Shown one piece after another: positions 3,901 through 26,248 of a stretch of 49,164 nt of DNA; the stretch's first letter is position 1, and every line of letters begins with the position of its first letter. Both the position numbers and the translations under genes were made by a program. The DNA comes from Parcubacteria group bacterium Greene0416_36 (GTDB lineage Bacteria; Patescibacteriota; Patescibacteriia; VMEV01): NCBI GenBank assembly GCA_007375725.1, contig VMEV01000010.1:1-49164 (forward strand), read 5' to 3'. The notes below the pieces were generated by a model. That model searched no databases and had not been told where the DNA came from. It worked only from the letters and a program-made list of their open reading frames with translations.

Positions 3901-4861
3901 GCACCATGGGACGCAGATCGGGCGGGATTACAGGCAATACGGAAAGCACCATCCATTCCGGACGTATATTATTCTTGCGGAGATTCCGGAGGAGCTGCAG
4001 ACGGCGGAGAGTCTTATCTTTCTTGGCCACCTTGCTCTTTTGGGCCACCTCTTCCAACTCGGCGATCAGCGGACCAAGCTCGACACGAGACAAAAGCGAC
4101 CGAATCGCTTCCGCACCAATGCCGGCTTCAAAAATATGACTGTATTTGAGAGACAGTTCCTGATAAGAAGCCTCGGAAATAATCTGCATGGGAACCAGTT
4201 CTTTGAGCTCAGCTTCGGTTTCCTCCAAAATGGCATCGAGTTCCGCCATCTTGGCTTCCTGTTCACCTATGGCCACTTTCATAGCTTCAGCCGCATCATC
4301 CTTGTTCAATTCTTTTGCCTCTACTTTAGAATCCATCCGTTTAATTTTTTGATCATACTCAGCCAAAATATTCTTCTTTTTCATTTCATACTCATTTTTA
4401 ATTTCCGCCACTACCGCCATTTTGGCATCTTCATTAACCTTGGTAATGATAAAAGAAGCGAAATAAATCACTTTTTCCAAATTGAGCACCGACAAATCCA
4501 AAATGAGGCCAATTTTGGAGGGCACATTTCGCAAAAACCAAATATGAGAAACGGGAACTGCTAAATCAATATGTCCCATGCGCTCGCGGCGGACAATCGA
4601 ACGGGTGACTTCCACCCCGCACTTGTCGCAAACTATGCCTTTGTAGCGAATTTTCTTGTATTTGCCGCAATAGCATTCCCAATCCTTCGAAGGTCCAAAA
4701 ATCTTCTCACAGAATAAGCCATCCTTTTCAGGGCGCTGGGTGCGATAGTTAATCGTTTCCGGCTTAGTCACTTCTCCAAAAGACCAGGCGTGCATCACGT
4801 CCGGGGAAGCCAATTTCAGGCGTATCGAGCTGAAATCGGTTGTTTTTATGGGCGTAAACAT
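926..4861 (-). CDS. rpoC: DNA-directed RNA polymerase subunit beta'
   Basis: [12 protein letters not shown] catalytic motif, N-terminal zinc finger (CYCGKYK..CDKC), [13 protein letters not shown]. Confidence 0.99.
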
Positions 4862-4934
4862 AAATAAGTAAAAAGTTAGAAGGCAAAAGTCACAAGTTTA
4901 AAACTTTAAAACGAGGCGTCTCTGGCGCAAAAAA

Positions 4935-7900
4935 CTACTTTTTCTTTTTAGCTTTGCCCGTGCGTTCATCATCGGACAATTCATGAGTCTGATCATCTAC
5001 TTTGGCGCTGGCAGAATCCAAAAGCTCCACATCCAAACACAAACCCTTGAGTTCGCGGACGAGCACATTAAACGATTCCGGCACATTGAGCTTCCTGATC
5101 GGTTCATTTTTAATAATGGATTCATAGGCTTTGGCGCGGCCCGGCACATCATCGGATTTGATGGTCAGAATTTCCTGAAGCATATGAGCAGCGCCGTAGG
5201 CTTCCAAAGCCCAGACTTCCATTTCTCCAAAACGCTGGCCTCCGAACTGCGCTTTTCCTCCCAAAGGCTGTTGGGTAATGAGGGAGTAAGGACCGATGGA
5301 ACGCTGGTGGATCTTGTCTTCCACCATATGGTTGAGTTTGAGCATATACTTAATTCCAACCGTGATTTTATTATCAAAAGCATCACCGGTTCGGCCGTCA
5401 TACAGCACCATCTGGCCGTCCCGTGTATATCCGGCTTTTTCGAGCTCATCGCGCACCTGTCCTTCCGTGACTCCGGCAATCGGAGGAGTCGCCACCGTAT
5501 ACCCCAGCTTGGTTGCGGCAAGCCCTAAATACGTTTCAAAAAGCTGGCCCAGATTCATACGAGAAATAACACCCAAAGGACTGAGAATGATGTCCACAGG
5601 TTTGCCATCCGCCATAAACGGCATATCTTCCACATTCACAATGCGAGAAATAACACCTTTGTTTCCGTGGCGTCCTGCCATTTTGTCGCCTACCTGAATC
5701 TTTCGGAGCTGGGCAATGGAGACCTGGATGGTTTTGATGACCCCCGAGGGAAGCTTATCTCCCGATTCACGGGAAAACACCTTGATGTCTACCACTTTTC
5801 CATGCTCGCCGTGTTCGAGATACATGGAACTGTCCCGCACATCCTTAGCTTTTTCGCCAAAAATCACACGGAGCAATTTTTCTTCCGGAGACAGTTCAGT
5901 TTCCCCTTTCGGAGTGATTTTGCCCACCAAAATATTGCCCGAAGAAACTTCGGCGCCAATGCGGATAATGCCCTGTTCATCAAGATCCTTGAGCTTCTCT
6001 TCTCCAATATTTGGAATATCGGAAGTCACAATTTCAGGACCGAGCTTGGTGTCTCGGACATCGATGGAATAATCTTCGATATGAATGGATGTATATAAAT
6101 CACGGTGCACCACTTTTTCGGAAATCAAAATAGCGTCTTCATAGTTGCCTCCTTCCCAAGACATAAACGCAACCATGATATTCTGGCCCAAAGCCAATTC
6201 ACCGCCATCGGTGGAGGCGCCATCGCAAAGAGTATCTCCTTTTTTTACCTTATCTCCACGATTGATGATCACCCGCTGATTGAGACACGTCGAAGCATTG
6301 GAACGAGAGAATTTTCGCAAGCGATATTCATGGCGCACCCCTTTAGCAGCTTCGAGCACGATTTTATCACCGGATAATTCCACAATTTTACCGTCTTCCG
6401 GAGCGGTGATTACATGGCCAGAATGGTAGGCCACGGCCGACTCTATGCCCGTGCCGATCACAGGAGCCGACGGATTGATGCAGCAGACAGCCTGGCGCTG
6501 CATATTCGTGCCCATCAGAGCGCGGTTAGCGTCATCGTGTTCGACAAAAGGGATGAGCGACGTGGCAATGGAAAAAATCTGCATGGTCGAGACATCCACA
6601 TAATCAATCTGATCGATAGTCACCACCGACGGCCGGCCATGGTATCGAACCTCGGCTTTCTCAGTGACAAAATAGCCATTATCATCTACCGGAGTGGTCG
6701 CAGGAGTGCTCACATGCCGCTCCTCAGTAAAAGCATCGAGATACACCACGTCATGGGTCACGCGGGGCCGCACAGGAATTTCCACAAGAGTTGTCTTTGC
6801 CAATTTTACGGCTAAATCCTTAGTGATTTTCTCGCCGTCTTTAGCAATAATTTTATCATTAGCAGGATTCTTGATATTCCCCCTTACAATCTCTCCCTCG
6901 GCAGATTGAGGAGCATTAACCACACTTTTAACTACTTTTCTAAATGGGGTCTCAATAAATCCATACTCATTGAGCTTGGCATAGGACGCGATATGGCCAA
7001 CCAGACCAATGTTCGGGCCTTCGGGAGTCGCGATCGGACAGATGCGGCCGTAATGAGTCGTATGCACGTCGCGAACTTCAAAACCCGCGCGGTCTCGAGA
7101 CAGACCTCCGGGACCCATGGCTGAGAGACGACGCTTGTGTTCGAGTTCGGAGAGATGATTGGTCTGATCCATGAACTGGGACAATTGGCTGGACATGAAG
7201 AATTCCTTCACCACGCCCATAACCGGCCGGGCATTGACCAAGCGGGCAGGAGTCAGAGTGGCGATATCATAAGTACTCATGCGGTCGCGCACGATTCTTT
7301 CCATACGAGAAAGACCGATCCTGAATTTATTCTGCACCAGTTCTCCGATGGCACGAACGCGGCGATTGCCCAAATGATCGATATCATCGGCTTCTCGCTG
7401 AGTGATATTGAGATCAATGATTTCCTTAACCACAGCGAGCAAATCCTCGCGGCGCAAAATACGATTCTCCGGAATATTGGAAACCTCAAAATTAAAGCGG
7501 CGGTTGATTTTGTAGCGTCCCACGCGGCCAAAATCATAGCGGTCAAAATTGAAAAACATCGAATGGATGAGAGATTTCGCATTATCCCCGGTGGCCAAAT
7601 CTCCGGGACGAATACGCTTATACACCTCCTTGAGCCCCTCTTCTTCGGTATGGGAGGTATCCTTAGCAATAGAATTTTTGATATAGGAAATTTCAGGATG
7701 CACATCCACGTCAGCAAAGGCAGCCAAAAGCTCATCATTAGTTCCAAAACCAAAAGCGCGGAGAAGGGCAGTAATAGACACCTTGCGCTTCCTATCAATC
7801 TTGGCCCAGATCACGTGATTGGAATCGGTTTCGATCTCAATCCAAGCCCCGCGATTGGGGATAATTTTTGCGCCATAAAATCGGCGGCCACGAAACAGGG

Positions 7901-9682: not shown

Positions 9683-9848
9683 ATTAAAATAGGATTTAGG
9701 GTTTAGGATTCAGGAAAGAAACACACACCACAACTCAAGATCATTTAAAAATTACATTCATATTATACCAAAAAAACAAAAACAAAAAAACGTAGGGGCG
9801 GTCCAACGTTACATCGGACCGCCCCTGCATTTATAAAAAAGAATTTCT

Positions 9849-10130
9849 CTAAAGCACCGCATCCTTGCAGGCCTTGGCAACGCGAAATTTGACCACGGTC
9901 TTGGCTGGAATCTGGATCTGGGCGCCGGTGGCGGGATTGCGGCCCATGCGGGCGGCGCGGTCCTTCTTCACGAGCTTACCCAATCCTGGAACCACAAATT
10001 CGCCATTCTTTTTGACCTCAGAATAGGCAATTTCGGTTAAAACACCCAAGAGCATGGCAACATCCTTTTTGGTGTGGCCGGTCTTGGAGGCGACTGCTTC
10101 TAACAACTGAGATTTTGTCATCTTTGACAT
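9849..10130 (-). CDS. hup: DNA-binding protein HU
   Basis: MTKSQL...GLGKL....RAARMGRNPATG..I.IPAK.VVKF. Confidence 0.95.
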   Translation of the reverse strand: MSKMTKSQLLEAVASKTGHTKKDVAMLLGVLTEIAYSEVKKNGEFVVPGLGKLVKKDRAARMGRNPATGAQIQIPAKTVVKFRVAKACKDAVL

Positions 10131-10337
10131 AACCTTTTATTTTAATTATAAAGTTTTTCGAATTTTATTGGATAAGGTATTTTTTGTAAAGACGTGCCAT
10201 GACGCGTCTCTACAAAAAATACCTCGTCCGCAAAAATTCTCTACTTTTATACTCCCTATGATACACAATAAAAAAAGGGTTGCAAGACATTCACTCATCC
10301 ACAGCCCGCCGAAGCTTTAATCTTTTTTTTGGTAAAG

Positions 10338-10598
10338 TCAAATTTTGGCGTCCGTTTCTCCCAAAAAAAGAGACCCAATTTTGCCGTTCAAATCATTGAT
10401 TTGCTTCGTAAAATCAAGGCGGAGCTCTTCTTCTGTACGGACGAAATTCGCGCGCTGATCCACGCTTAAATTTTTATCCGGATCTGCGATCATTGCATCC
10501 AACAAGTCCAATAAGTTTTCCACATAGCGGGACTGTTTTTGGATCTGGCTGTAATAGTAAGAAACGATTTCTTTTTTTTGTTCTTGGGATAAAGCCAT
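10338..10598 (-). CDS. Small hypothetical helical protein
   Basis: ORF from MALSQEQ, tightly packed in the minus-strand gene run. Confidence 0.6.
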   Translation of the reverse strand: MALSQEQKKEIVSYYYSQIQKQSRYVENLLDLLDAMIADPDKNLSVDQRANFVRTEEELRLDFTKQINDLNGKIGSLFLGETDAKI

Positions 10599-10602
10599 AA
10601 AA

Positions 10603-10821
10603 TTATTGCGCCAATTTTGCTCTAGCGGCACGAGTATCGGCGGCATCAACCTCTCTCATTTTCTCCATGATAACTGAGGGCAAAGGAGAACGTTTCAGCT
10701 CAGCAACCCAGCGGTCCGCCAGAGCGACTTTTTCTTTGTCCGACAAAGTTTCCGGTGTTTCCATCTTTTCTTCTGACGGAGCATCCGCTAATTTTTTTTC
10801 TGTCCTAATCTGTTCAGCCAT
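10603..10821 (-). CDS. Small hypothetical protein
   Basis: ORF from MAEQIRT; 4-nt gaps to both neighbours. Confidence 0.6.
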   Translation of the reverse strand: MAEQIRTEKKLADAPSEEKMETPETLSDKEKVALADRWVAELKRSPLPSVIMEKMREVDAADTRAARAKLAQ

Positions 10822-10825
10822 AAAG

Positions 10826-16401: not shown

Positions 16402-16782
16402 CTACCCTCTCATGGACACAGCTTCCCGATATTCGCTAGGGACTGCCATCTTCTCCCCTTTCACTTTTTTGGGAATATCGACGATTTTGATCGTCTTATC
16501 TAGGGCATGCAGGTATTTCATGAAAGTGCTGAGGCGAAAATCCACACGACCATTCTCAATACGAGACAAAAAACTTTTCTTAAATCCAGCTTTTTCTGCA
16601 AAGTCTGATTGAGTCATACCAGAATTTTCTCTTATCTCTAACATGTCTGAAATATACGAATGAATTAAACCTAATTTTTCAACATCTCTTTCCATTTTCA
16701 ACCTTCCTTTTGGATCATTAGCATATACTTCAGCCACATAAGATTCAAAAGAGGTATCTTCATTTTTATTATAGTTATGCAT
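16402..16782 (-). CDS. XRE-family HTH antitoxin (HigA-like)
   Basis: IRENSGMTQSDFAEKAGFKKSFLSRIENG HTH; downstream of a RelE/Gp49-like gene. Confidence 0.8.
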   Translation of the reverse strand: MHNYNKNEDTSFESYVAEVYANDPKGRLKMERDVEKLGLIHSYISDMLEIRENSGMTQSDFAEKAGFKKSFLSRIENGRVDFRLSTFMKYLHALDKTIKIVDIPKKVKGEKMAVPSEYREAVSMRG

Positions 16783-16789
16783 ATTTTTT

Positions 16790-17047
16790 TTATTCTATTT
16801 TAAGATTTTTTATAAAATCCATGTAGTAACCTTCAGCGAGTTCAATTTCCTGAAGTGGAATCTTATTCGATTTTTTTGCAAAAGCATGAAGCAATATAAT
16901 CTGCCTTGGATGATACAATATATAAAAAATTCTATAATTTATTCCATGGATCTCATCTCTTAGTGCCCAAACTTTAACAGGTATCTGGCCATTTGTTTTC
17001 TTATAAAAACAAAGACGCCAAGAATCTTCTAAAGGAATCATACACAT
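16790..17047 (-). CDS. RelE/ParE-superfamily (Gp49/HigB-like) toxin, apparently internally deleted
   Basis: FY...NG..PV and YRIFY......IILLHAFAKKSNKIP..EIELA motifs present; only 85 aa. Confidence 0.65.
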   Translation of the reverse strand: MCMIPLEDSWRLCFYKKTNGQIPVKVWALRDEIHGINYRIFYILYHPRQIILLHAFAKKSNKIPLQEIELAEGYYMDFIKNLKIE

Positions 17048-17149: not shown

Positions 17150-17713
17150 TTATTTCTCCTCCTGCTCACGTCCGACGTATTCCCGATTCTCGGTATTGAT
17201 GATCACGACTTCGCCTTCTTTGATGAAGAGCGGCACATTAATGGTGGCTCCGGTTTCGAGCTCGGCCTGCTTCATGACGGCTCCGGCGCTGTCTCCTTTG
17301 ACCCCGGGAGCGGTATTGACCACTTTGAGCGATACTTTCTTGGGAAGAGAAATGGTCACCAAATCATCCCCCAAAAAGAGTCCGTCCACCTTGGCTTCGG
17401 CCACGAGAAACTGGCCGTCTTCGCCTACCGCTTCGGTGCTAACCTGAAACTGCTCAAAATTGTCGTCCATGAAATAATAATTCGTGGCGTCTTTGTAAGT
17501 GAATTGCATGGCACGGCGAGTCACATCCGCCTCCTGTACGACTTCGTCCGATCGGAAGGTAACTTCGAGCGTCTTGCCATTTTTGACATTGCGCATCTTG
17601 ATGCGGCACATCATGCGGCGCTGAGCCATTTTGGAACGGTTCACCTCGGAAACGATCCAAGGATCATTCTCGTACATCATGGCCATTCCTTTGTGAAAAT
17701 CTCCGGCAGTCAT
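17150..17713 (-). CDS. efp: Translation elongation factor P
   Basis: YFMD.NFEQ, TAPGVKGDSA...K.AELETG..I.VPLFI.EG...I.T....Y..R. Confidence 0.95.
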   Translation of the reverse strand: MTAGDFHKGMAMMYENDPWIVSEVNRSKMAQRRMMCRIKMRNVKNGKTLEVTFRSDEVVQEADVTRRAMQFTYKDATNYYFMDDNFEQFQVSTEAVGEDGQFLVAEAKVDGLFLGDDLVTISLPKKVSLKVVNTAPGVKGDSAGAVMKQAELETGATINVPLFIKEGEVVIINTENREYVGREQEEK

Positions 17714-17842
17714 AAATTAGGCTATTAGGCATTAGCTTCTTAGCTTTTTAGAAGACAAAGTAACTAATCCGAAATGGATATAAAAAATAAAAATCTACTT
17801 ATAAACCTATATAATTAAGACCAAATTAGCCTTTTTGGGAGG

Positions 17843-17881
17843 AAAAAGCAAATCCTCGAGAGGAAGTTTCCAATCGAGGAT
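17843..17881 (-). terminator. Terminator closing array 1
   Basis: ATCCTCGA...TCGAGGAT stem followed by TTGCTTTTT on the minus strand. Confidence 0.6.
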
Positions 17882-17888
17882 ATATTTC

Positions 17889-18865
17889 GCCAAATAGATT
17901 TGGCATAAACAAAAATTCGAATTAAAGCGCAAAATATTAGTAAACAAGAAAGAAATTTGTTATAAAACTTCGCGAGAAAATTCTCGCCTCAAAACTAATT
18001 CAACGCATTATAATCTGCAGAAATTCGAAATATAGTGAGGGATAGTACGTCGATACATTAAAGAGTACTGCCTATTCGAGACCTAAAAAAAAGTCTCCAG
18101 TAACTTAAAAGGCTACAATTAAATCTACGCTACTGGACCGTAGTCCGGTAGGGATATCATCATCCGTCCTTTATAAAAGGACCAGAACCATAATCTAATA
18201 AAAAACAAGACGTTCAACATAAATCCGTAGAAAACATGCCGAGCTTCGAAAAGCTCCTAGGCATTAAAACAGGGTGAAACACGGCAAAGGGACCTACAGA
18301 ACACTGATCCAAAATCCCACAACTTTCATGTCTATTATGACCAGACACCTTAAACGAACAATAATGTGCGGCAACACAATCCGAACTACGACACTTAACT
18401 TGGATATCCGAGCAAAAATGCTCCTGAAAAGTAGAGAAATCTGAAACAGTGAACAGGACCCTAGGGGACCAAAATACACTACACATCCGTCCGAAGAATT
18501 CGGACCAATAATAAACCGCAGACTGCAGGAAACAAATATAGGACATCTCGCAGGACATTGATTTCGCCCTTGATAAAAGGGCCAGAAGAACAATTTATCT
18601 TACTTTAAGATAAGATAATTTAATAAATTACAAGGCAAATAAATACATACCGAGCCAATGAAGGCTCCTTGGCACTACAATAAACTAAAGTAAAACAGAC
18701 CATAGTAATCTAAAGGACGCCACTCCATCCGCGAGCAAAGACTCGCCAAAAATCTAAATGACCGCAAGCTAAACCAAGGGAAATAAAACCAATAAGCCCA
18801 AAGGCAAACAATCCGAGAACGAAAAGCTCTCCTATGCAATATTCTTCCTAAACAAACAGAAAGGC
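17889..18865 (-). ncRNA. Putative guide-RNA array 1: 12 hairpins and 11 complete pentamer-periodic tracts
   Basis: Hairpins start at 17889, 17972, 18078, 18166, 18241, 18328, 18410, 18489, 18566, 18652, 18731 and 18815. After each of the first 11, the + strand has a purine every 5 nt for 10-16 steps, starting exactly 5 nt from the stem. No credible ORF. Confidence 0.85.
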
Positions 18866-18890
18866 CTTTTCAAAGAACAGCAACCCAATA

Positions 18891-18919
18891 AATCTAGTCT
18901 AATAGCCAAAGAATGTCAA
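18891..18919 (-). promoter_or_regulatory. sigma70 promoter for array 1
   Basis: Minus strand TTGACA-17 nt-TAGATT, followed by boxA-like TGTTCTTTGAA (18869-18879). Confidence 0.75.
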
Positions 18920-18930
18920 TCCTCCCAACG

Positions 18931-18970
18931 AAAAAACAGCTTATTTTGTTCAATAAGCTGTTTTCTGTTT
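18931..18970 (-). terminator. Intrinsic terminator after the helicase gene
   Basis: aaaacagcttatt-ttgttc-aataagctgtttt. Confidence 0.7.
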
Positions 18971-18996
18971 CTTCTAAAAAACAAAAAGTAATATAG

Positions 18997-21030
18997 TTAT
19001 TTCTTCAAAAACGCACGGGCATCCAGACAACAATCTGCAAAGGTTTTGCCAGATATATAAGAGGTTCTTAGCTTTTCAGGGAGGGCGTAATAGACAAGCC
19101 CCTTAAATCTCTGATCATAACAGATCGTAACGGATTTGATTTTCCCGTCGCGTTCCGTACGGCCGCGGGCTTGCTTGATACGGATCTTGACCAGCCATTG
19201 ATGGATAGCGAAAGCGCCGTTTTTGCCGAACTTGCGATTCTCGAACTTCGACTCGGGAGAATTCGGATCAGGGTATCCAGGACGAAGGGTGATCACTACT
19301 TGAGCCAGACCATCCGGCAAGTCAATCCCTTCGGAAAAATTCTGCTCCGTACCGAGTAAAACCATGCCTTTGCCACCGCGAAACAATTCCACAGCTTCTT
19401 TGGGAGTTTTCGGCATAGTACCCAGCATCGCATCCGATCTCGGACTATTCGAACTGCGACCTCGGGAATAAGTGATGACATCGAGATTTTCTTTGTCCGG
19501 AGAGGAATAGAATAAGAACTTATCCAACTCTTGATGCGATCCAACCAGAACTAAAACACGAATCCCTTCGGCGTTAAAAAGTTTGCATTCCTTAACAATA
19601 CTTTCCAGGCTCTTGGCAGGTTCTCTATCCGAACGCACACTGTAAGCCAGACTCGGAGTGTCGCTCGGCATATAAATACGGGTGTTCTCAGCCGGGAAAC
19701 CGGATTCGAGAAAAAGATACTGAGGAAAATCAATGCCGGAAATATACCCAAAAACAGTACGGTCGCCAATGGTGGCGGACATCGCCAAAGTTCGGGACAA
19801 AAGCACTTTCTTACGAATCAGAGGCCTCACATGATGGGACTGGATGGTAAGGCGATTGATGACTTTTGGCCCCCTTCCTCCGTATTCTTCTTCTGGAATG
19901 GGTTCAGACACAAAATAACTGAATACATAGTTGAGTGCCATGTGCTTGATTTCATCATTTTCTTCCTTGGGAATAGCATAACGAAGGGACTGGATGTACC
20001 TCCAAAGATTGAAAAGAAGATTCTGCACCTCATTGAGAGCTTCGCGCCCTCCTTCCGCTTGGCTCGCCATTTTCTCCAATTCATTTTTTTTGGATTCCAA
20101 AGGAGAAGTGTCAATGGCTTCCAAGGCTTTGATGAGTTTTTTGATTTCATCATCTTCCAAGACGATTTTGGTGAAAGGAGGCTTATTCCTAGATACGATT
20201 TTCTTGAACACAACGAGAAATTTCTTGAGAGAGACGGACACACTTTCGTCCACTTTCTCCACGACCTCAATCGCGCGTTCTAAATGCCAGTCAGTAATAT
20301 CGTAAGAGAGGACATTGCGCACCAGTGGCGTGATATTGTGAACTTCATCCAGGACCACCGCGTCATGATCTTCCCAAACCCCTTTCTCGCTTTTAAAAAG
20401 CCTCATGATCAAATAAAAGGCATACGTGGTCACAACAATTCCCTCGTACTGCTTAGCCGCATATTTATGAGCATAATACGGACAGGGAACCGCCCCTTCT
20501 TCAAGAGTTTTTCCAGTCGCCTGATCCACCCGATGACCGCAGCTTCGCAGTATCGCACAAGGAATTTCATTGGCTTTCCACGCCGGCTTTTGATCCGGAT
20601 AATAAAGACAATCATGAGACTCTCTGCCTTCGAGCACAAATACCATATCCGAAAAACGCTTAGCGATTTGTTTGGCTTGAGCCAAATTGGGCACCACGTA
20701 GAAAATTCGTTTATAGCCATGCAATTTCCGAAGAACTGAAAGCCACACGATACCAATGAGAGACTTGCCGACGCCAGTTTCTCCCTCCAATAAAACTTGA
20801 TCATGGCCTTGGGATAGAAAACGAAAAGCCTTGAGCTGAGCCTCTCTCATTCGGAAATAACGCGGAATATGCCAAGGAAAACACTCCACATAAGGAGCCA
20901 ATGCCGGATTGGCAGCGACTTCCACAGCAAGCATTTCTCTTGTATACCCTTCCTGAGGCGATTCTTGTACGATCGGAATAGGGGAAGGTGTATCTGCAAT
21001 TGAACCCAATAATAATTGATCCGCCATCAT
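18997..21030 (-). CDS. DinG/Rad3-family SF2 helicase with probable FeS-binding cysteines
   Basis: GETGVGKS (motif I), DEVH (II), SAT (III), EGIDLP (V), QARGRTER (VI); GRESHDC...PC....C...PCPYY cysteine cluster. Confidence 0.88.
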   Translation of the reverse strand: MMADQLLLGSIADTPSPIPIVQESPQEGYTREMLAVEVAANPALAPYVECFPWHIPRYFRMREAQLKAFRFLSQGHDQVLLEGETGVGKSLIGIVWLSVLRKLHGYKRIFYVVPNLAQAKQIAKRFSDMVFVLEGRESHDCLYYPDQKPAWKANEIPCAILRSCGHRVDQATGKTLEEGAVPCPYYAHKYAAKQYEGIVVTTYAFYLIMRLFKSEKGVWEDHDAVVLDEVHNITPLVRNVLSYDITDWHLERAIEVVEKVDESVSVSLKKFLVVFKKIVSRNKPPFTKIVLEDDEIKKLIKALEAIDTSPLESKKNELEKMASQAEGGREALNEVQNLLFNLWRYIQSLRYAIPKEENDEIKHMALNYVFSYFVSEPIPEEEYGGRGPKVINRLTIQSHHVRPLIRKKVLLSRTLAMSATIGDRTVFGYISGIDFPQYLFLESGFPAENTRIYMPSDTPSLAYSVRSDREPAKSLESIVKECKLFNAEGIRVLVLVGSHQELDKFLFYSSPDKENLDVITYSRGRSSNSPRSDAMLGTMPKTPKEAVELFRGGKGMVLLGTEQNFSEGIDLPDGLAQVVITLRPGYPDPNSPESKFENRKFGKNGAFAIHQWLVKIRIKQARGRTERDGKIKSVTICYDQRFKGLVYYALPEKLRTSYISGKTFADCCLDARAFLKK

Positions 21031-21123
21031 TTTTTCCTTTCAGGAAAATTAATAAGAAACAAACTAAAACACGAACAGGTTCATTCAATCAGAAAACCCA
21101 TAATTTGTAAAGACTCGTCCAAT

Positions 21124-21153
21124 AAAAAAACACTCTCTTGGCGAGAATGTTTT
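21124..21153 (-). terminator. Possible terminator/attenuator between the RAMP-like gene and the helicase
   Basis: Minus strand aaaacattctc-gccaa-gagagtgtttt, then ttt. Confidence 0.5.
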
Positions 21154-21186
21154 AATTGTCCAATATTTCACTATAAAATCTATCGA

Positions 21187-22053
21187 TTATGTTTTTCCGG
21201 AATTCGCAGGAAGAGAAACTCCTTCCTTCACTTCTTCCTCTTCCATTTTATACGGAAGCGAAATGTATTCATAATCGTCTTCTTTCAAGAGTTCTTTCTT
21301 TACTTCTTGCACACGAACAATCTTGAAGGTACCGTTGGTGCCGTTACAGTTTACACGATAGGACCCGATTCCATAGATCACACCGCCGTTTTTGAGGCAT
21401 TGAAGCGCGATATCGATAGTCTTGGGACCCAAACGATCTTTGACTTCGCAGAGGAATTTGATCTGGGTGCCTTCGGGGTATTCGGGACGCACAATGCGGC
21501 AAGTGATTTCAGCTTTTGGAATAACACCGCGGTCTTCATTGACACGGAATTTTTCCTTTCCGACAATGCACATTTCCTGATCCACAAATTCGGCAGTATA
21601 CCCCAAAATCCTGAAAAAAGAACCGATAATGCTTCCGCTGGTCTTGGTGGAAACTTTCTTGCGATTGCCCAAATCCACATCACATCCCCCGCAACGAGTA
21701 GCCGCATAAATCCACTTGGCAGGCACGCCCGATTTACCAGAATCAGGATCGATCCACACTTTTTTCCTGGCAATTTCTATGCCCGGAAGCCCTTTTACCT
21801 TAACTTTCTTATCAGCAGAATCGATTTCCAATAATTTCTCTGGAGTCATCGGATCGCCCAAAAGTGGAGAGGTCGTTTGGATCGTGATTTCCAAAATGGT
21901 GATATATTTGGTTCCATACGAAACAGGAGAGGAACCTTTCTTTTCCTTTTTCTTCCCCTTTTCAGCGCTCGCCGCACTATCAGCAACGGTTTCAACCACG
22001 GGAATCGGTTCAGTCGCGACAGCAGAGGAACTATCATTTTTTTGTCTAGCCAT
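21187..22053 (-). CDS. Stand-alone RAMP/Cas7-like protein (288 aa)
   Basis: AAGGAG RBS before ATG 22053. LEITIQTTSPLL first strand, G.P...I.AA helix, RPEY...T.I.F and a C-terminal glycine-rich loop GG..YGIGSYR....G..GTF, which is the RAMP/Cas7 layout. Judged by eye, no HMM run. Confidence 0.75.
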   Translation of the reverse strand: MARQKNDSSSAVATEPIPVVETVADSAASAEKGKKKEKKGSSPVSYGTKYITILEITIQTTSPLLGDPMTPEKLLEIDSADKKVKVKGLPGIEIARKKVWIDPDSGKSGVPAKWIYAATRCGGCDVDLGNRKKVSTKTSGSIIGSFFRILGYTAEFVDQEMCIVGKEKFRVNEDRGVIPKAEITCRIVRPEYPEGTQIKFLCEVKDRLGPKTIDIALQCLKNGGVIYGIGSYRVNCNGTNGTFKIVRVQEVKKELLKEDDYEYISLPYKMEEEEVKEGVSLPANSGKT

Positions 22054-22112
22054 GCTAGATCTCCTTAAAAACAAAATACTCAATCTACACAAAACACTAA
22101 AAAATAACAATC

Positions 22113-22353
22113 GAGGTTCAAAGACCCCCTTTACAATACACTACTTAAAAATAAACAGATGAAAAATGAAGGAACATACTCTATTTCGAGGTTAAAACCT
22201 CCAAAACATTAACTTACGAAACAACAAATTAATTAACACCGTTTTAAAGAAATCAATAAAACAGTATATACCGCCCGCATAATGCAGGCCTAAACCTCAC
22301 AGGGATTGACGCAAATCCGCGCAATTATACTCAGAGGTAATCTGCAGGAAAAT
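22113..22353 (-). ncRNA. Putative guide-RNA array 2 (3 units) in the leader of the RAMP-like gene
   Basis: Hairpins 22113-22128, 22188-22201 and 22273-22289; purine every 5 nt on + for 11, 13 and 12 steps from 22133, 22206 and 22294; G.U pairs form only on the minus strand. Confidence 0.82.
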
Positions 22354-22499
22354 TGTCGTTCTAATTGTAAAGAACGTGTTCATCCAAGCATAACCCCAAA
22401 TACTTGTCAAATCTTCCAGGATATGCTTCAATGATGAGTCCAATGTAATTTCAGACCGAGAGACTATAAAACAAATTCCAATCAAAACAGGAGAAACAA

Positions 22500-23489
22500 A
22501 TGAACGATATCGCAACAAGACCAGTACGCGAAAAGAGTCCATGGACCGTGGCCTTTGAAAACAGAAAACATCTCGGAGATTTTTCTACCCCAGCTTGGAA
22601 ACAGGCATATGGTATTATCAATAAAGATTTTTCCAGATTCGAAATACTCGACTGCCCAAATAAAGCGGGACTTACCATTGACTGCGGGCACGCCAGAATC
22701 AAAAACCAAGCAATCGGGATAGAAGGAAACACCTTAATGGTGCACATCTCCGATGTCGCAAGCTTCATTCCCAAAGACAGCCCTCTGGATGTCGAAATGC
22801 AGAGCCGAGTCATATCCATACAAAATTCCAGGATTCTCCCCTTCCGGTTAGCAAAGGAACAGTTCTCGCTGGAACAGAATCAGAAAACCAAATGCCTCAC
22901 GTTCCAATGGGCATTCGATGAATACGGAGAAATCAATCAGTTGCGACGAAAAATATACCATTCCAATGTCGAGGTCCCGATATCGATTTCATTTGAACAA
23001 GCCGATGGCATCCTCGAGGATCCTCTACACAAATACCACCCAGTCATACGAAGCCTCAAATCGATCGGAGAACATCTGGTCGACCTGCGCATCCGCAATG
23101 AGTGGACATTCACGCGCGAACGAAAAAAAACATGGGTGGAAAAAAACGGACAATGGATTTTCACAGACTATATCGACGGGTCTCAATCCCCCAATGACTG
23201 GATCATGCAGGAGGTCATGATTCTAGTGAATTACACCGTGGCATCCCTGTTAGACCAATTGGGTATCCATGGATGCTACACCGATCCCTATCGCTCTCCC
23301 AATGGTATCCGCTATTGCCAAGCCACAGCCCCCATGCATAATTTGGAAGATCTTGTAAATCAAAGGATTCTATTGGCATTATTATCACTCGGGAAAATTC
23401 CTATACCCTATACCCTGGAAGAAATGGAGGAAATCAAAACCAAAACCAATCGCATGTACTTCGCCCGATCTTCGGGAGGGAAAAAATAA
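22500..23489 (+). CDS. RNB (RNase II/R catalytic)-domain protein, predicted inactive
   Basis: TID...LMVHISDVASFIP.DSPLD.E..R..S, FSL, EVMILVN and ATAPM..LEDLVNQRIL match RNB motifs; the catalytic DxDD is replaced by IKNQ. Confidence 0.75.
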   Translation: MNDIATRPVREKSPWTVAFENRKHLGDFSTPAWKQAYGIINKDFSRFEILDCPNKAGLTIDCGHARIKNQAIGIEGNTLMVHISDVASFIPKDSPLDVEMQSRVISIQNSRILPFRLAKEQFSLEQNQKTKCLTFQWAFDEYGEINQLRRKIYHSNVEVPISISFEQADGILEDPLHKYHPVIRSLKSIGEHLVDLRIRNEWTFTRERKKTWVEKNGQWIFTDYIDGSQSPNDWIMQEVMILVNYTVASLLDQLGIHGCYTDPYRSPNGIRYCQATAPMHNLEDLVNQRILLALLSLGKIPIPYTLEEMEEIKTKTNRMYFARSSGGKK

Positions 23490-23500
23490 AAAACAAACAA

Positions 23501-23661
23501 TTCTGTCCTGTCTATTTGCCTAGATCAAAACAAACTAAATTTGAATTTAGGTCCTTTATAATAAAGGACGAAAAAATTTCACATTATTCACGTCAAACAA
23601 ACCTAATTCACGTGGACTTAATTTCATTCCTGTTCGTCTCTGAGCCTCTCTAATCGAGGCT
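23501..23661 (+). ncRNA. Putative guide-RNA array 3 (2 units), opposite orientation, downstream of RNB-like gene 1
   Basis: Pyrimidine every 5 nt at 23501-23546 (10 steps) and 23588-23638 (11 steps); each tract ends 5 nt before a hairpin (23551-23569, 23643-23661) that is followed by GAAA/GGAAAT. Confidence 0.78.
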
Positions 23662-23668
23662 GGAAATC

Positions 23669-23717
23669 AAAAAGTAGCTTCTTCTCAAATTTCAGAAAAA
23701 GCTACTTTTATTTTTTT
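23669..23717. terminator. Bidirectional terminator between convergent arrays 3 and 4
   Basis: AAAAGTAGCTT...AAGCTACTTTTATTTTTTT. Confidence 0.7.
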
Positions 23718-23718
23718 C

Positions 23719-23957
23719 AGCCCCCAGAGAGGGCTCTTGAATATACTATAATTTAGAGTGCCTGAAAGAACAGAACAATAAGGCACGGAAAAGCAAACCG
23801 CGTTTTTAGAAAAACGCCAACACTTAACTCTTGATCGAAATAAAATAATACACAGGAATAAACTATAATAGAACAGCATCCGAGTATGGTGAGTACTCCT
23901 AGAATTGAATGGAATTTACAACAAAGGACAATGATGAGCACCAATCTACAGTAAAAG
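23719..23957 (-). ncRNA. Putative guide-RNA array 4 (3 units)
   Basis: Hairpins 23719-23735, 23800-23817 and 23882-23898; purine every 5 nt from 23740 (12 steps), 23822 (10 of 11) and 23903 (11). Confidence 0.82.
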
Positions 23958-23966
23958 TACCCAATG

Positions 23967-23995
23967 AAACTAGCAATTGGATAGAGGGATGTCAA
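23967..23995 (-). promoter_or_regulatory. sigma70 promoter for array 4
   Basis: Minus strand TTGACA-17 nt-TAGTTT with TG extended -10. Confidence 0.7.
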
Positions 23996-24081
23996 GAGCA
24001 AGCCCTTGTACAATCGATCCGGATATGCTTCAATACTCTCGATTTTCAGTATATTTATCTCTCATTTTAAGGAGTCCAAAA

Positions 24082-25029
24082 ATGGCTAAAAATGGCCAAA
24101 AAAAGAAGATCAACTGGAAAGAGTATTTTGAAAAAAGACAGAATTCGTATCTGTCGGATGCGTCACGCGAAGAATTCGTCAAACATCTGCATTCTGCAGC
24201 ATCCGAAAATAAAAAAATAGAAAGGACAATAATCACCAGCATCACATTCGACAAGGAAATCTATATGAATGAGGCGATACTGATCGAATATCCCTATATT
24301 CATATCAGCGTCCCGGATATAGTCAGTCTCGTTACTCCCAAGAAGACACTGGATAAAGAATTGTACGAGAGAGCCTCTTCCGTTAAAGATAACCCTCTTT
24401 TTCCGGAAGATCTCATCAACCTTCGATCCTCTTTCAAGCATGATGAACTTCGAAATGCTTATACTCTCTCTTGGAAATTTGGCGATGCCGGAGAAATTCA
24501 AGAACCCAAATTTTATCCCAGCCAAATTCTATCAATTGGATATATCCAACCTTCGCCAAGCGCTGAAGCTAAAGACTATCCCAAGAACTTGGAACAAATC
24601 GGACTAAAACTCATTGATCGCAGAATCAAAACGTTTCAGCTCTTCAAGAAAGAGGAAAAATTGCCAGTTGCAGAGAAAGAAGGCTATAAAATTTTCGAAT
24701 GCTACCTCAGAAACTCCACCATGAGCTGGGTTGAAAAAGAACTTGCCATCTTTGCCAATATCCAAGCTGGGGAACTATTTCATCAGAAAGGCATAGCCGC
24801 ATGTTTTGCCTCTCCCTATGGTTCTCCCTGTGAAACCCACTATGCTCCCATCATGCGGCCGCTGGATTCCTATCGAGATCTCATCAATCAGCGAGCACTC
24901 TTGTCAATTTTCACCGGACTCAAAAAGGATTTCCCCTATACTCCCGCGCAGATAGCGAAAATAAATGAAAGGATTCAAACACGGTACAGCGCGTGGAAAA
25001 ATCTAGAAAAGAAAAATTCTAATCTATGA
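24082..25029 (+). CDS. Second RNB-like protein (paralogue), predicted inactive
   Basis: AAGGAG RBS before ATG 24082; IHISVPDI...LD.E..ERASSV, ELAIFAN and HYAPIMRPLDSYRDLINQRAL; catalytic aspartate motif lost. Confidence 0.7.
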   Translation: MAKNGQKKKINWKEYFEKRQNSYLSDASREEFVKHLHSAASENKKIERTIITSITFDKEIYMNEAILIEYPYIHISVPDIVSLVTPKKTLDKELYERASSVKDNPLFPEDLINLRSSFKHDELRNAYTLSWKFGDAGEIQEPKFYPSQILSIGYIQPSPSAEAKDYPKNLEQIGLKLIDRRIKTFQLFKKEEKLPVAEKEGYKIFECYLRNSTMSWVEKELAIFANIQAGELFHQKGIAACFASPYGSPCETHYAPIMRPLDSYRDLINQRALLSIFTGLKKDFPYTPAQIAKINERIQTRYSAWKNLEKKNSNL

Positions 25030-25056
25030 AATTGATCGGTTTCCAAAAAAACCATC

Positions 25057-25100
25057 AAAAAAGTAGCCGATATTTAACCATCAGGCTACTTTTATTTTTT
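25057..25100. terminator. Bidirectional terminator between RNB-like gene 2 and array 5
   Basis: AAAAGTAGCC...GGCTACTTTTATTTTTT, nearly the same as 23669-23717. Confidence 0.7.
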
Positions 25101-25102
25101 CC

Positions 25103-25482
25103 GTGGATTGAATCCACCTGCACACAAATTGATTATGGCTTGAGTCAAGGCAATCCGAAATAATATAGAGAAATCTACGATAATTCAAAAAACAGAACAG
25201 CAATCCGCGCTCTTTTCTAAAAGCGCCTTAAATTTACATTAAATCAATGTAAGTTACACCGGTCGAGACTAAAGAGGTACAATTCGCCTGATAAGTCAGG
25301 CCAGCGATAAAAACCAACTCAAACTACATAAATCTGATATACGTAAATATGACGAAACCATTCGCGTCTGAAAAGACGCCTAGACAAGAAAGCAACGAAA
25401 TCAACACTAAGCCAAATAACAGAACAATAATCCGCGCCCCATTCAATGAGCGCCTACAATAAAAACAAGATTAAATAGAAAA
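25103..25482 (-). ncRNA. Putative guide-RNA array 5 (5 hairpins; 4 complete tracts plus a short leader tract)
   Basis: Hairpins 25103-25117, 25207-25226, 25286-25301, 25364-25379 and 25434-25453; purine every 5 nt from 25122 (17 steps), 25231 (11), 25306 (11), 25384 (10) and 25458 (5). Confidence 0.85.
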
Positions 25483-25505
25483 CACAACAAATTAAGAACT
25501 CATCA

Positions 25506-25534
25506 AACTTATACAATCAATCAATGATTGTCAA
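25506..25534 (-). promoter_or_regulatory. sigma70 promoter for array 5
   Basis: Minus strand TTGACA-17 nt-TAAGTT, then boxA-like GTTCTTAA. Confidence 0.7.
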
Positions 25535-25539
25535 GGGTG

Positions 25540-25571
25540 TGTCGCAAAAACATAATAATGTCTTTGCGACA
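25540..25571. promoter_or_regulatory. Palindromic operator-like site TGTCGCAA-N16-TTGCGACA (second copy at 34375-34406)
   Basis: Identical half-sites and spacing at two loci, each between back-to-back TTGACA boxes. Confidence 0.65.
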
Positions 25572-25577
25572 AAATTC

Positions 25578-25606
25578 TTGACAATTGATTTTAGAAAATT
25601 TATAAT
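25578..25606 (+). promoter_or_regulatory. Consensus sigma70 promoter of the mazEF-like operon
   Basis: TTGACA-17 nt-TATAAT. Confidence 0.85.
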
Positions 25607-25629: not shown

Positions 25630-25890
25630 ATGTCAACTATCACACTCTCACCCAATACGAAAGAACGCATCAATGTCATGCTTCCACGACGGATCATCCG
25701 TTCGATCGGCCGTCTATCGAAAAATAGAAAACGAAGCCAATTCATCGCAACCGCGGTCGATTTTTATATTGATTCAATGCAAAACAAAAAACTCAAATCT
25801 CTTCTACAAGAAGGAGCGCAAAAAAGATCCGAAAGAGATCAGATAATCACCGAAGAAATGGGCCTCATCGATACGGTTTATGAAAAATAA
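25630..25890 (+). CDS. Ribbon-helix-helix antitoxin (MazE/EndoAI-like)
   Basis: RINVMLP...I......RSQFI..AV pattern; overlaps the start of the toxin gene. Confidence 0.8.
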   Translation: MSTITLSPNTKERINVMLPRRIIRSIGRLSKNRKRSQFIATAVDFYIDSMQNKKLKSLLQEGAQKRSERDQIITEEMGLIDTVYEK

Positions 25891-26248
25891 GACCCTTTTC
25901 CCAAAGCGAGGCGAAATATATCTCGTCAATTTTGATCCTACAGTAGGAGCGGAGATGAAAAAAACACGGCCGGCTCTCATTTTACAAAATGATATTGCAA
26001 ACAAATATAGCGCCATAACCATCATCGCAGCAATCACCTCTCAATTCGAACTGCCTCTCTACCCTACTGAAGTTTTATTGGACTCTTCCGCATGCCGGCT
26101 AGACAAAGAATCAGTCATAGTACTCAATCAAATCCGATCCATCGACAAAACACGCCTGATCAAAAAAATCGGAGAAATTCCAGCGAAGTCATTACAGCAA
26201 ATAGAAATAGCACTAAAAATAAGCCTGGGTCTTATAAAGATAGAATAA
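25880..26248 (+). CDS. mazF: PemK/MazF-family toxin endoribonuclease
   Basis: KRGEIYLVNFDPTVGAE.KKTRPALILQND..N, QIRSIDK.RL. Confidence 0.93.
   Translation: MKNKTLFPKRGEIYLVNFDPTVGAEMKKTRPALILQNDIANKYSAITIIAAITSQFELPLYPTEVLLDSSACRLDKESVIVLNQIRSIDKTRLIKKIGEIPAKSLQQIEIALKISLGLIKIE

Follow-up and report, generated by a model that had tools for sequence, protein, structure and literature searches.

A probable VIPR island with relaxed pentamer repeats and a DinG-type helicase in the chromosome of a groundwater Parcubacteria bacterium

What kind of element is formed by a dozen short hairpins that share no repeat sequence and are followed, each at the same distance from its stem, by a purine at every fifth base? 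Such an arrangement was noticed at positions 17889-18865 of a 49,164-nucleotide stretch of DNA from Parcubacteria group bacterium Greene0416_36 (contig VMEV01000010.1; the whole stretch is referred to here as the window). The original prediction, made from the sequence alone, described it as a cryptic array of a kind other than CRISPR and left the system unnamed. Our analysis supports that reading and supplies the name: the segment, referred to here as array 1, is very probably a polycistronic array of 11 guide RNAs (vrRNAs) of a Viral Interference Programmable Repeat (VIPR) system, encoded on the minus strand. In all likelihood, it forms part of a chromosomal VIPR island (approximately 17.85-25.5 kb) that combines five arrays, with 23 vrRNAs in total, and genes for one Vipr protein and a DinG-type helicase; the guides take up about one fifth of its 7.6 kb.

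VIPR as a kind was published in 2026, only months ago, as a system of RNA-guided DNA recognition (bioRxiv 10.64898/2026.04.26.720920), and the window locus adds to it a member with a degenerate repeat. The effector, Vipr, is reported to be an ancestral RAMP, and the vrRNA to consist of 9-16 YNNGG repeats and a structured 3′ tail, with the NN dinucleotide pairing with double-stranded DNA and one target base in three being skipped (bioRxiv 10.64898/2026.04.26.720920). The same report distinguishes seven VIPR types, gives NNNGG, YNNNG and NNNNG as alternative repeats, includes helicases and nucleases among the accessory genes of types III-V, and describes self-targets as absent (bioRxiv 10.64898/2026.04.26.720920). 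In the accompanying structural account, one protomer per repeat builds a helical filament, and a purine-excluding pocket holds the pyrimidine (bioRxiv 10.64898/2026.04.26.720927); a further report counts 21 clusters among Vipr-linked arrays of 5-mers whose motifs are non-canonical (bioRxiv 10.64898/2026.10.21.760802). VIPR is thought to pre-date CRISPR, and its code was worked out on two closely related phage systems. To this picture the window locus contributes a large, cleanly organised example, with 23 guides in a 1.03-Mb genome.

The five-base register of array 1

Twelve short G+C-rich hairpins lie between positions 17889 and 18865 of the window, starting at 17889, 17972, 18078, 18166, 18241, 18328/18330, 18410, 18489, 18566, 18652, 18731 and 18815, and these measured starts reproduce the series of spacings (from 75 to 106 nucleotides) read earlier by hand. 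Counted from the end of the stem, every fifth base of the plus strand is a purine in all 11 complete tracts, in runs of 12, 16, 11, 10, 11, 11, 12, 11, 13, 12 and 13, and the proposed phase lock is real. The recounted runs agree with the hand count, 10 of the 11 being given directly by an anchored test and the sixth (a run of 11) once its stem is extended to 18348 by a G.U pair possible on the minus strand only. The twelfth hairpin (18815-18831), nearest to the promoter-like site, carries no phased tract on its plus-strand 3′ side (a run of 2), as the mention of 11 complete tracts had implied.

The anchored test was used because Fourier analysis and autocorrelation are too weak for one fixed base in five. 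It covered the first 11 pentamers of all 12 stretches, thus including the leader hairpin and one mis-anchored stretch, and found purines at 121 of the 132 fifth positions (99 of them A), compared with 44-57% purine in the other four phases. The original prediction had named a signal no stronger than that of shuffled controls as grounds for its rejection; not one of 20,000 composition-matched shuffles reached 121, the shuffle maximum being 99. A control over the entire 1.03-Mb genome pointed the same way, with 10 purines at 10 positions following 34 hairpins at offset 5 and 30 at offset 10, and only 9-13 hairpins at each of eight out-of-phase offsets. Purine runs of at least 9 were associated with 40 hairpins genome-wide, 18 of them within positions 17889-25379 of the window. 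Beyond the window, in-phase purine runs of 17 and 15 come after two hairpins of the same genome (G000), at C12:90665-90683 (+) and C23:2322-2343 (-), respectively; these may be chance occurrences or stray vrRNA-like units.

The check by Fourier transform and autocorrelation that had originally been suggested proved a poor detector of the register. Analysed tract by tract, period-5 purine power exceeded the shuffles in at best 12 of 2000 cases and mostly in none, and no tract was individually convincing; the pooled autocorrelation of the purine track was +0.08 at lag 5, +0.10 at lag 10 and +0.17 at lag 15. The signal is a phase lock to the hairpin, not spectral power. Neither a repeat search of the window nor a comparison of the hairpin sequences found a direct repeat common to the array 1 units; the hairpins differ from unit to unit and no repeat family spans the units, as had been claimed. 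Repeat-based CRISPR finders are blind to such arrays, which a tool-less reading of the raw sequence can find.

Read from 5′ to 3′ on the minus strand, each unit consists of a few bases starting with G-G/A-A, 10-16 pentamers, and a hairpin of 5-8 base pairs; throughout the 23 units of the island, nothing separates this hairpin from the final pentamer. The U or C expected at every fifth nucleotide of the predicted minus-strand RNA is present, within a pentamer consensus Y-N-N-W-K of which Y is fixed. Counted over the 230 internal pentamers of the 23 units, position 1 is U in 184 and C in 46 (entropy 0.72 bits), position 2 is A in 86, C in 31, G in 57 and U in 56 (1.92 bits), and position 3 is A in 55, C in 61, G in 57 and U in 57 (2.00 bits), whereas position 4 is A/U in 77% and G in 10% (1.78 bits) and position 5 is U in 52% and G in 31% (U/G 83%; 1.63 bits). 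The pyrimidine is followed by a hypervariable dinucleotide, positions 2 and 3 having the highest entropies of the five. These two positions carry the code in SUSP1, the Escherichia phage in which VIPR has been described, so the code positions are the most variable ones here as well. The last pentamer ends in W-G in 21 of the 23 units (one of the two misses, the unit at 23818, is an anchoring error), and the hairpin has G as its first and C as its last base in 19 of the 23. The 11 units of array 1 contain 10-16 pentamers and the other 12 contain 10-13, with up to 18 in the unit at 25118, depending on where its 5′ boundary is set; in the middle unit of array 4 (hairpin 23817-23800), one of 12 phased positions is not a pyrimidine.

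The minus-strand sense proposed earlier for the RNA is backed by G.U pairs, fold stability and gene orientation. Across 25 hairpins (those of the 23 units and two leaders), 10 G.U pairs occur in the proposed RNA sense and 2 in the antisense, the sense fold is the more stable one in 21, and array 1 points the same way as vipr and the helicase gene. The leader hairpin at 18815-18831, which includes one G.U pair, folds with -7.4 kcal/mol in the sense and -2.6 kcal/mol in the antisense direction, and a U.G pair in the RNA sense is also present in an array 2 hairpin (22289-22273). A stability of -6 kcal/mol or better was reached by 22 of the 25 hairpins and by 5.9% of shuffles.

The Vipr protein, the helicase and their relatives

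On the minus strand, array 2, a gene encoding 288 amino acids, a gene encoding a 677-amino-acid helicase, a terminator, a promoter-like site and array 1 follow one another in this order. An exhaustive search of 1.84 billion representatives returned 77 relatives of the 288-amino-acid protein at E<=0.001, of approximately 190-290 amino acids, and an alignment (A1) of 68 rows was prepared from 66 relatives, the window protein and one protein from a related genome (G004). The A1 profile matches one solved protein, PDB chain 36pp_D, 'SUSP1 Vipr protein', with an E-value of 1.1e-16 over residues 2-192 of 202. All rows of A1 except the window protein (67 of 68) match phrog_4652, and the alignment displays a glycine-rich stretch (G-I-G-S-Y-R...G...G-T-F) with G224, G241 and P190 invariant. 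An AlphaFold model of the window protein (pLDDT, the model's own confidence score, 83.3) has Csm3 and type VII Cas7 as its top Foldseek matches (E 5e-8 to 1e-6; probability 1.00 for the Csm3/Cas7 match at E 5e-8), in agreement with the description of Vipr as a RAMP (bioRxiv 10.64898/2026.04.26.720920). Vipr proteins are minimal RAMPs that combine an RRM core, a glycine-rich loop and a thumb. Judged by family profile and modelled fold, the product of this gene, located 2.3 kb upstream of array 1, is a RAMP-fold effector and a homologue of Vipr. Another RNA with a five-base spacing had also been considered, since TRAP binds RNA with 11 triplets at a 5-nucleotide period; a TRAP-like protein-binding RNA was dropped once the neighbouring gene proved to be vipr.

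The roles of the SUSP1 residues that contact the repeat are taken from the structural report (bioRxiv 10.64898/2026.04.26.720927), and they were mapped on the window protein by eye, through the alignment consensus. In this profile alignment, H17 and D177, which read the first G, are replaced by D and S, respectively; R138 and W178, which cradle the second G, correspond to R and Y; and R179, which stacks on the pyrimidine, is retained as R. This pattern fits a repeat that has lost its G at position 4, retains G (or G/U) in part at position 5 and keeps its pyrimidine strictly. A repeat loss matched by protein substitutions would constitute a natural experiment on the contacts that set the code.

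The helicase encoded between vipr and array 1 matches the Pfam families Helicase_C_2, DEAD, ResIII and DEAD_2, and its best match in the defence libraries is the PADLOC profile typeIV_DinG (E 6.2e-40, profile positions 17-566 of 575); against NCBIfam cas_csf4 it scores 21.4 bits, with a cut-off of 400. Four cysteines are conserved in the helicase alignment, presumably the pattern of iron-sulfur helicases. The protein is likely a Vipr accessory protein (Vap). The words DinG, Csf4 and XPD are absent from the main text of the VIPR report (bioRxiv 10.64898/2026.04.26.720920), and a phylogeny may be warranted of how a VIPR accessory helicase relates to CasDinG.

Among 401 genomes sampled from the class, orthologues of the helicase are present in 10, G000 included, at E-values from 1e-66 to 1e-111; that of G004 is 33% identical to the window helicase over its full length. 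In the regions retrieved around these genes, 8 of the 10 loci have a vipr gene beside the helicase gene, so that the pair recurs in distant relatives; the 7.5-kb contig of G186 and the G123 locus yielded none. That vipr is consistently paired with a helicase of the DinG family, like that of type IV-A, bears on the proposed path from VIPR to CRISPR. Two tandem vipr genes occur in G004 (locus L027, contig C20, 5314-6129 and ~6240-7130), G378 (L039, 13905-15510) and G116 (L043, 6060-7804), and a duplication of this sort is a move in the direction of CRISPR loci, with their multiple RAMPs.

Guide units in the relatives were sought with an automated screen for a pyrimidine run of at least 9 in a non-coding stretch, followed by a hairpin. 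It yielded 3-21 candidate units per locus in the same 8 vipr-bearing loci; the units are clear by eye in G004, G052, G075, G264 and G116, and some rows of G378 look like chance runs. In these candidate units, the fraction of G at position 5 was 0.72 in G116, 0.62 in G004, 0.58 in G075, 0.57 in G052, 0.35 in G378 (where G reaches 0.54 at position 4), 0.30 in G264, 0.30 in G000 (with U at 0.51) and 0.22 in G041 (4 candidate units). From these fractions across the eight loci, the clade is of the YNNNG kind, and G000 is the most relaxed member seen here. The tail hairpins are conserved and followed by U runs in G052 and G075, and variable in G264 and G000. With a code relaxed to one fixed pyrimidine, lost contacts to the first G, a CasDinG-like helicase and three relatives carrying tandem vipr genes, the lineage could stand, as a living intermediate, between VIPR and CRISPR-Cas of type IV. 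It might read over two bases of every repeat, or have at position 5 a pocket specific for keto bases (G/U); we consider this idea speculative and rather doubtful.

Guide reading and rival explanations

If the window system works as that of SUSP1, one Vipr protomer would bind each pentamer, giving a helical filament of 10-16 subunits along the tract, with the invariant pyrimidine at pentamer position 1 held in a purine-excluding pocket and the 3′ hairpin capping the filament. Positions 2-3 would pair with double-stranded DNA, every third target base being skipped. From the layout of the locus, the hairpins followed by G-G/A-A may mark the cut sites between units of the precursor; processing at hairpins is proposed because an Rfam scan of the window found no ribozyme (0 matches at the gathering score), which also ruled out an array punctuated by hammerheads. 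In type IV-A CRISPR systems, CasDinG acts on the bound target, and the helicase of the window could likewise act on the target after binding. The targets would be foreign elements, a view taken because no target turned up in the organism's own genome, against which the 23 guides were matched by 12 rules of pairing (skips of 0-3 with positions 2-3, longer reads and other pairs).

Set beside published VIPR systems, the locus matches the minimal layout (vipr and one vap gene, flanked by long non-coding stretches and lacking a CRISPR array), with vipr, a helicase gene and arrays sharing no direct repeat, and the phase-locked units of array 1, with 10-16 pentamers, fall within the range of 9-16 tandem pentamers. 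The type II VIPR systems of SUSP1 and of a Pseudomonas fulva prophage (bioRxiv 10.64898/2026.04.26.720920 and 10.64898/2026.04.26.720927) have in common with it a small RAMP-fold Vipr, pentamers with a fixed pyrimidine in 9-16 repeats, a structured 3′ end, vrRNAs both upstream and downstream of the protein genes, and no CRISPR repeats. They have Y-N-N-G-G where the window has Y-N-N-W-K, an invariant pseudoknotted tail instead of a short hairpin of variable sequence, four vrRNAs compared with 23 in five arrays, a DNA-binding Vap instead of a DinG-type helicase, and a phage location, whereas the window lies in the chromosome of a groundwater bacterium with a 1.03-Mb genome. With the VIPR systems that have alternative repeats (types III-V, and the 5-mer clusters of bioRxiv 10.64898/2026.10.21.760802), the locus has in common the loss of one or both fixed G positions, a helicase or nuclease as partner, and a location in a cellular genome. 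The window's relatives G004, G052, G075 and G116 have Y-N-N-N-G, with G at position 5 in 57-72% of pentamers; in G000, where this position is G in 30% and U in 51%, only the pyrimidine is truly fixed.

Several observations weigh against the assignment to VIPR. The canonical YNNGG is not seen, G occupying 10% of position 4 and 31% of position 5 in the 230 internal pentamers, and the window repeat fits none of the four published consensus forms exactly, the nearest being a weakened YNNNG. SUSP1 has an invariant tail, but here the 3′ hairpins lack a conserved sequence. The window Vipr protein alone reaches a best E-value of 0.81 in a search of the PDB, matches no Pfam or PHROG family and finds nothing in PADLOC and NCBIfam; since the single sequence finds nothing, membership in the Vipr family rests on the family profile and the fold. 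The screen behind the unit counts in relatives is loose and may admit chance runs in GC-rich loci. Under all 12 pairing rules, the best matches of the guides in their own genome were no better than those of shuffled guides, which agrees with the reported absence of self-targets and names no target. Lastly, the sequencing runs matching the window DNA comprise four DNA runs, with no RNA run listed.

Of the rival explanations, the nearest to the assignment made here is a VIPR-family system with another reading rule, in which three or four bases of each pentamer pair or the target is RNA. It would suit the 1.78 and 1.63 of 2 bits kept by positions 4 and 5, the replacement of both SUSP1 residues that grip the first G, and a partner that is a helicase rather than a DNA-binding protein. 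We regard it as unlikely, because positions 4-5 are biased (A/U 77%; U/G 83%) beside a flat position 3 (55/61/57/57), as expected of protein-held positions next to a free NN code in an AT-rich genome, 57-72% of pentamers in relatives still have G at position 5, and no rule yielded a target in the organism's own genome, so that a longer read is not favoured.

It is very unlikely that the island is a decayed, no longer functional VIPR locus with repeats that began as YNNNG and then drifted. The first thing to be lost by drift would be the phase, and here 23 units retain the pyrimidine register together with an adjoining hairpin, vipr and the helicase gene have intact reading frames, hairpin stability far exceeds that of shuffles (22 of 25, compared with 5.9%), 21 of 23 units still have G at the end of their last pentamer, and promoter-like and terminator-like sites bracket the array. 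Decay would nevertheless account for G at position 5 in only 30% of pentamers, compared with 57-72% in four relatives, and would be in line with the lack of an RNA run among the matching sequencing runs.

An atypical CRISPR array, for example of a type IV system with a DinG helicase and repeats degenerated beyond recognition, is suggested by the typeIV_DinG match of the helicase (E 6.2e-40) and by the Cas7-like fold predicted for the neighbouring gene product. Type IV-A CRISPR-Cas (Cas7/Csf2 with CasDinG/Csf4) and the window locus do have in common a RAMP backbone, a DinG-family helicase and the lack of a dedicated nuclease. Type IV-A, however, has CRISPR repeats, a multi-subunit complex and acquired guides in a 6-nucleotide register, whereas the window has units without a common direct repeat, one vipr gene (two in tandem in G004, G378 and G116) and sequence-constrained guides in a 5-nucleotide register; a period of 5, not 6, that constrains the variable part would not be shown by acquired spacers. 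The match between the Vipr profile and the solved Vipr protein is one of sequence, the cas_csf4 score of 21 bits is far from the cut-off of 400, and no known Cas protein was found among the larger open reading frames scanned against Pfam, no dedicated search for cas genes having been made; the CRISPR explanation is therefore highly improbable. In class 1 CRISPR RNAs (Cascade/Csm), the guide is broken at regular intervals by the thumb of each backbone subunit, and in many subtypes a hairpin caps the 3′ end. Both traits are common to VIPR; in class 1, the interval is 6 nucleotides, the interrupted base is unconstrained and five of six bases pair, compared with two of five in published VIPR.

An origin of the pattern by chance or from the composition of an A-rich spacer region, to which the A-richness of the plus strand (AT skew 0.316) and the non-significant Fourier result per tract might point, is refuted by the anchored test, by the genome-wide excess at in-phase offsets only, and by the same architecture beside orthologous genes in other genomes.

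Layout of the island and its surroundings

The VIPR island and the features assigned to it are listed in Table 1. Both signals said to bracket array 1, the promoter-like site and the terminator-like hairpin, were located, on the minus strand. The promoter-like site stands just after the terminator hairpin of the helicase gene (18933-18964); its match alone proves nothing, since a promoter scan found 2 promoter-like sites compared with 3.4 expected. A simple terminator scan did not list the hairpin at 17840-17881. No tRNA genes were found in the window.

Table 1. Positions in the window of the features of the putative VIPR island
Feature	Position	Strand	Basis or remark
Terminator-like hairpin and U-rich run ending array 1	17840..17881	-	inverted repeat, fold
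Array 1, 11 vrRNA units	17889..18814	-	anchored test, folding
Array 1 hairpins, first part	18746-18731, 18667-18652, 18582-18566, 18505-18489, 18423-18410, 18348-18328	-	
Array 1 hairpins, second part	18256-18241, 18182-18166, 18097-18078, 17987-17972, 17904-17889	-	
Leader hairpin, then GGAU; no pentamer tract 5′ of the hairpin	18815..18831	-	folding
Promoter-like site TTGACA-17-TAGATT, would drive array 1	18891..18919	-	10 of 12 consensus matches
DinG/XPD-type helicase, 677 amino acids, between vipr and array 1	18997..21030	-	Pfam, PADLOC
vipr gene, 288 amino acids from ATG (TTG-started open reading frame to 22110)	21187..22053	-	family profile, fold
Array 2, 3 units directly upstream of vipr	22113..22349	-	runs 12, 13, 12
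Short RNB-domain protein 1, 329 amino acids	22500..23489	+	Pfam RNB, E 2.3e-26
Array 3, 2 units directly after the first RNB-like gene	23501..23661	+	runs 10, 11
Array 4, 3 units	23719..23953	-	phased runs
Short RNB-domain protein 2, 315 amino acids, paralogue of protein 1	24082..25029	+	Pfam RNB, E 6.7e-15
Array 5, leader hairpin (25458-25441) and 4 units	25103..25458	-	phased runs, folding

The two short RNB-domain proteins are paralogous (E 1.5e-29), and each of their genes is bracketed by vrRNA arrays. The aspartates of the DAKDLDDA stretch of RNase R are catalytic; in an alignment of protein 1 with RNase R (8cdu), this stretch reads HARIKNQA, and with the acidic stretch changed in this way, both RNB-like paralogues are probably not active exonucleases. 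Homologues of these genes were not found in the nine other VIPR loci, and without such recurrence their inclusion as a part of the system was not supported. A gene for an NYN-domain (RNase-like) protein (Pfam E 7.7e-7) is located in locus L027 of G004 at 4540-5103 (-), directly followed on the same strand by vrRNA-like units at 4300-4533 (-). A gene with an RNA-binding or RNase fold that carries vrRNAs in its 3′ flank is thus seen in two loci (the NYN gene in L027, and the first RNB-like gene with array 3 in the window).

The chromosomal setting of the window is indicated by rpoB, rpoC, elongation factor P (EF-P) and MutS, and the genome is 100% complete at 1.03 Mb. The window DNA is present in groundwater metagenomes; four DNA runs from one groundwater study, possibly the source of the window DNA, are identical to the window over 17700-25600, and therefore reveal no differences among samples. 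In all four groundwater runs, a second contig has only a 35-base stretch (17717-17751, with 3 differences) in common with the window and diverges on both sides of it; this short sequence, which closely follows the EF-P gene, is shared with another place or organism.

Next to rpoB, the segment 8567-15266 (-) encodes a Baseplate_J-like protein (a weak match, E 3.1e-5), a bacterial TSP3-repeat protein and a 997-amino-acid protein without a family, and includes approximately 1.1 kb without a large open reading frame (9683-10825). At the island edge next to array 5, an antitoxin-like gene at 25630-25882 (+), with a weak HicB-like match (E 0.0029), is accompanied by a MazF/PemK toxin gene at 25880-26248 (+; Pfam E 1.6e-31). 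Beyond EF-P as seen from array 1, at 16402-17047 (-), a 126-amino-acid HTH_3 protein adjoins an 85-amino-acid Gp49-like protein, a pair that we take to resemble toxin-antitoxin pairs of the HigB/HigA type.

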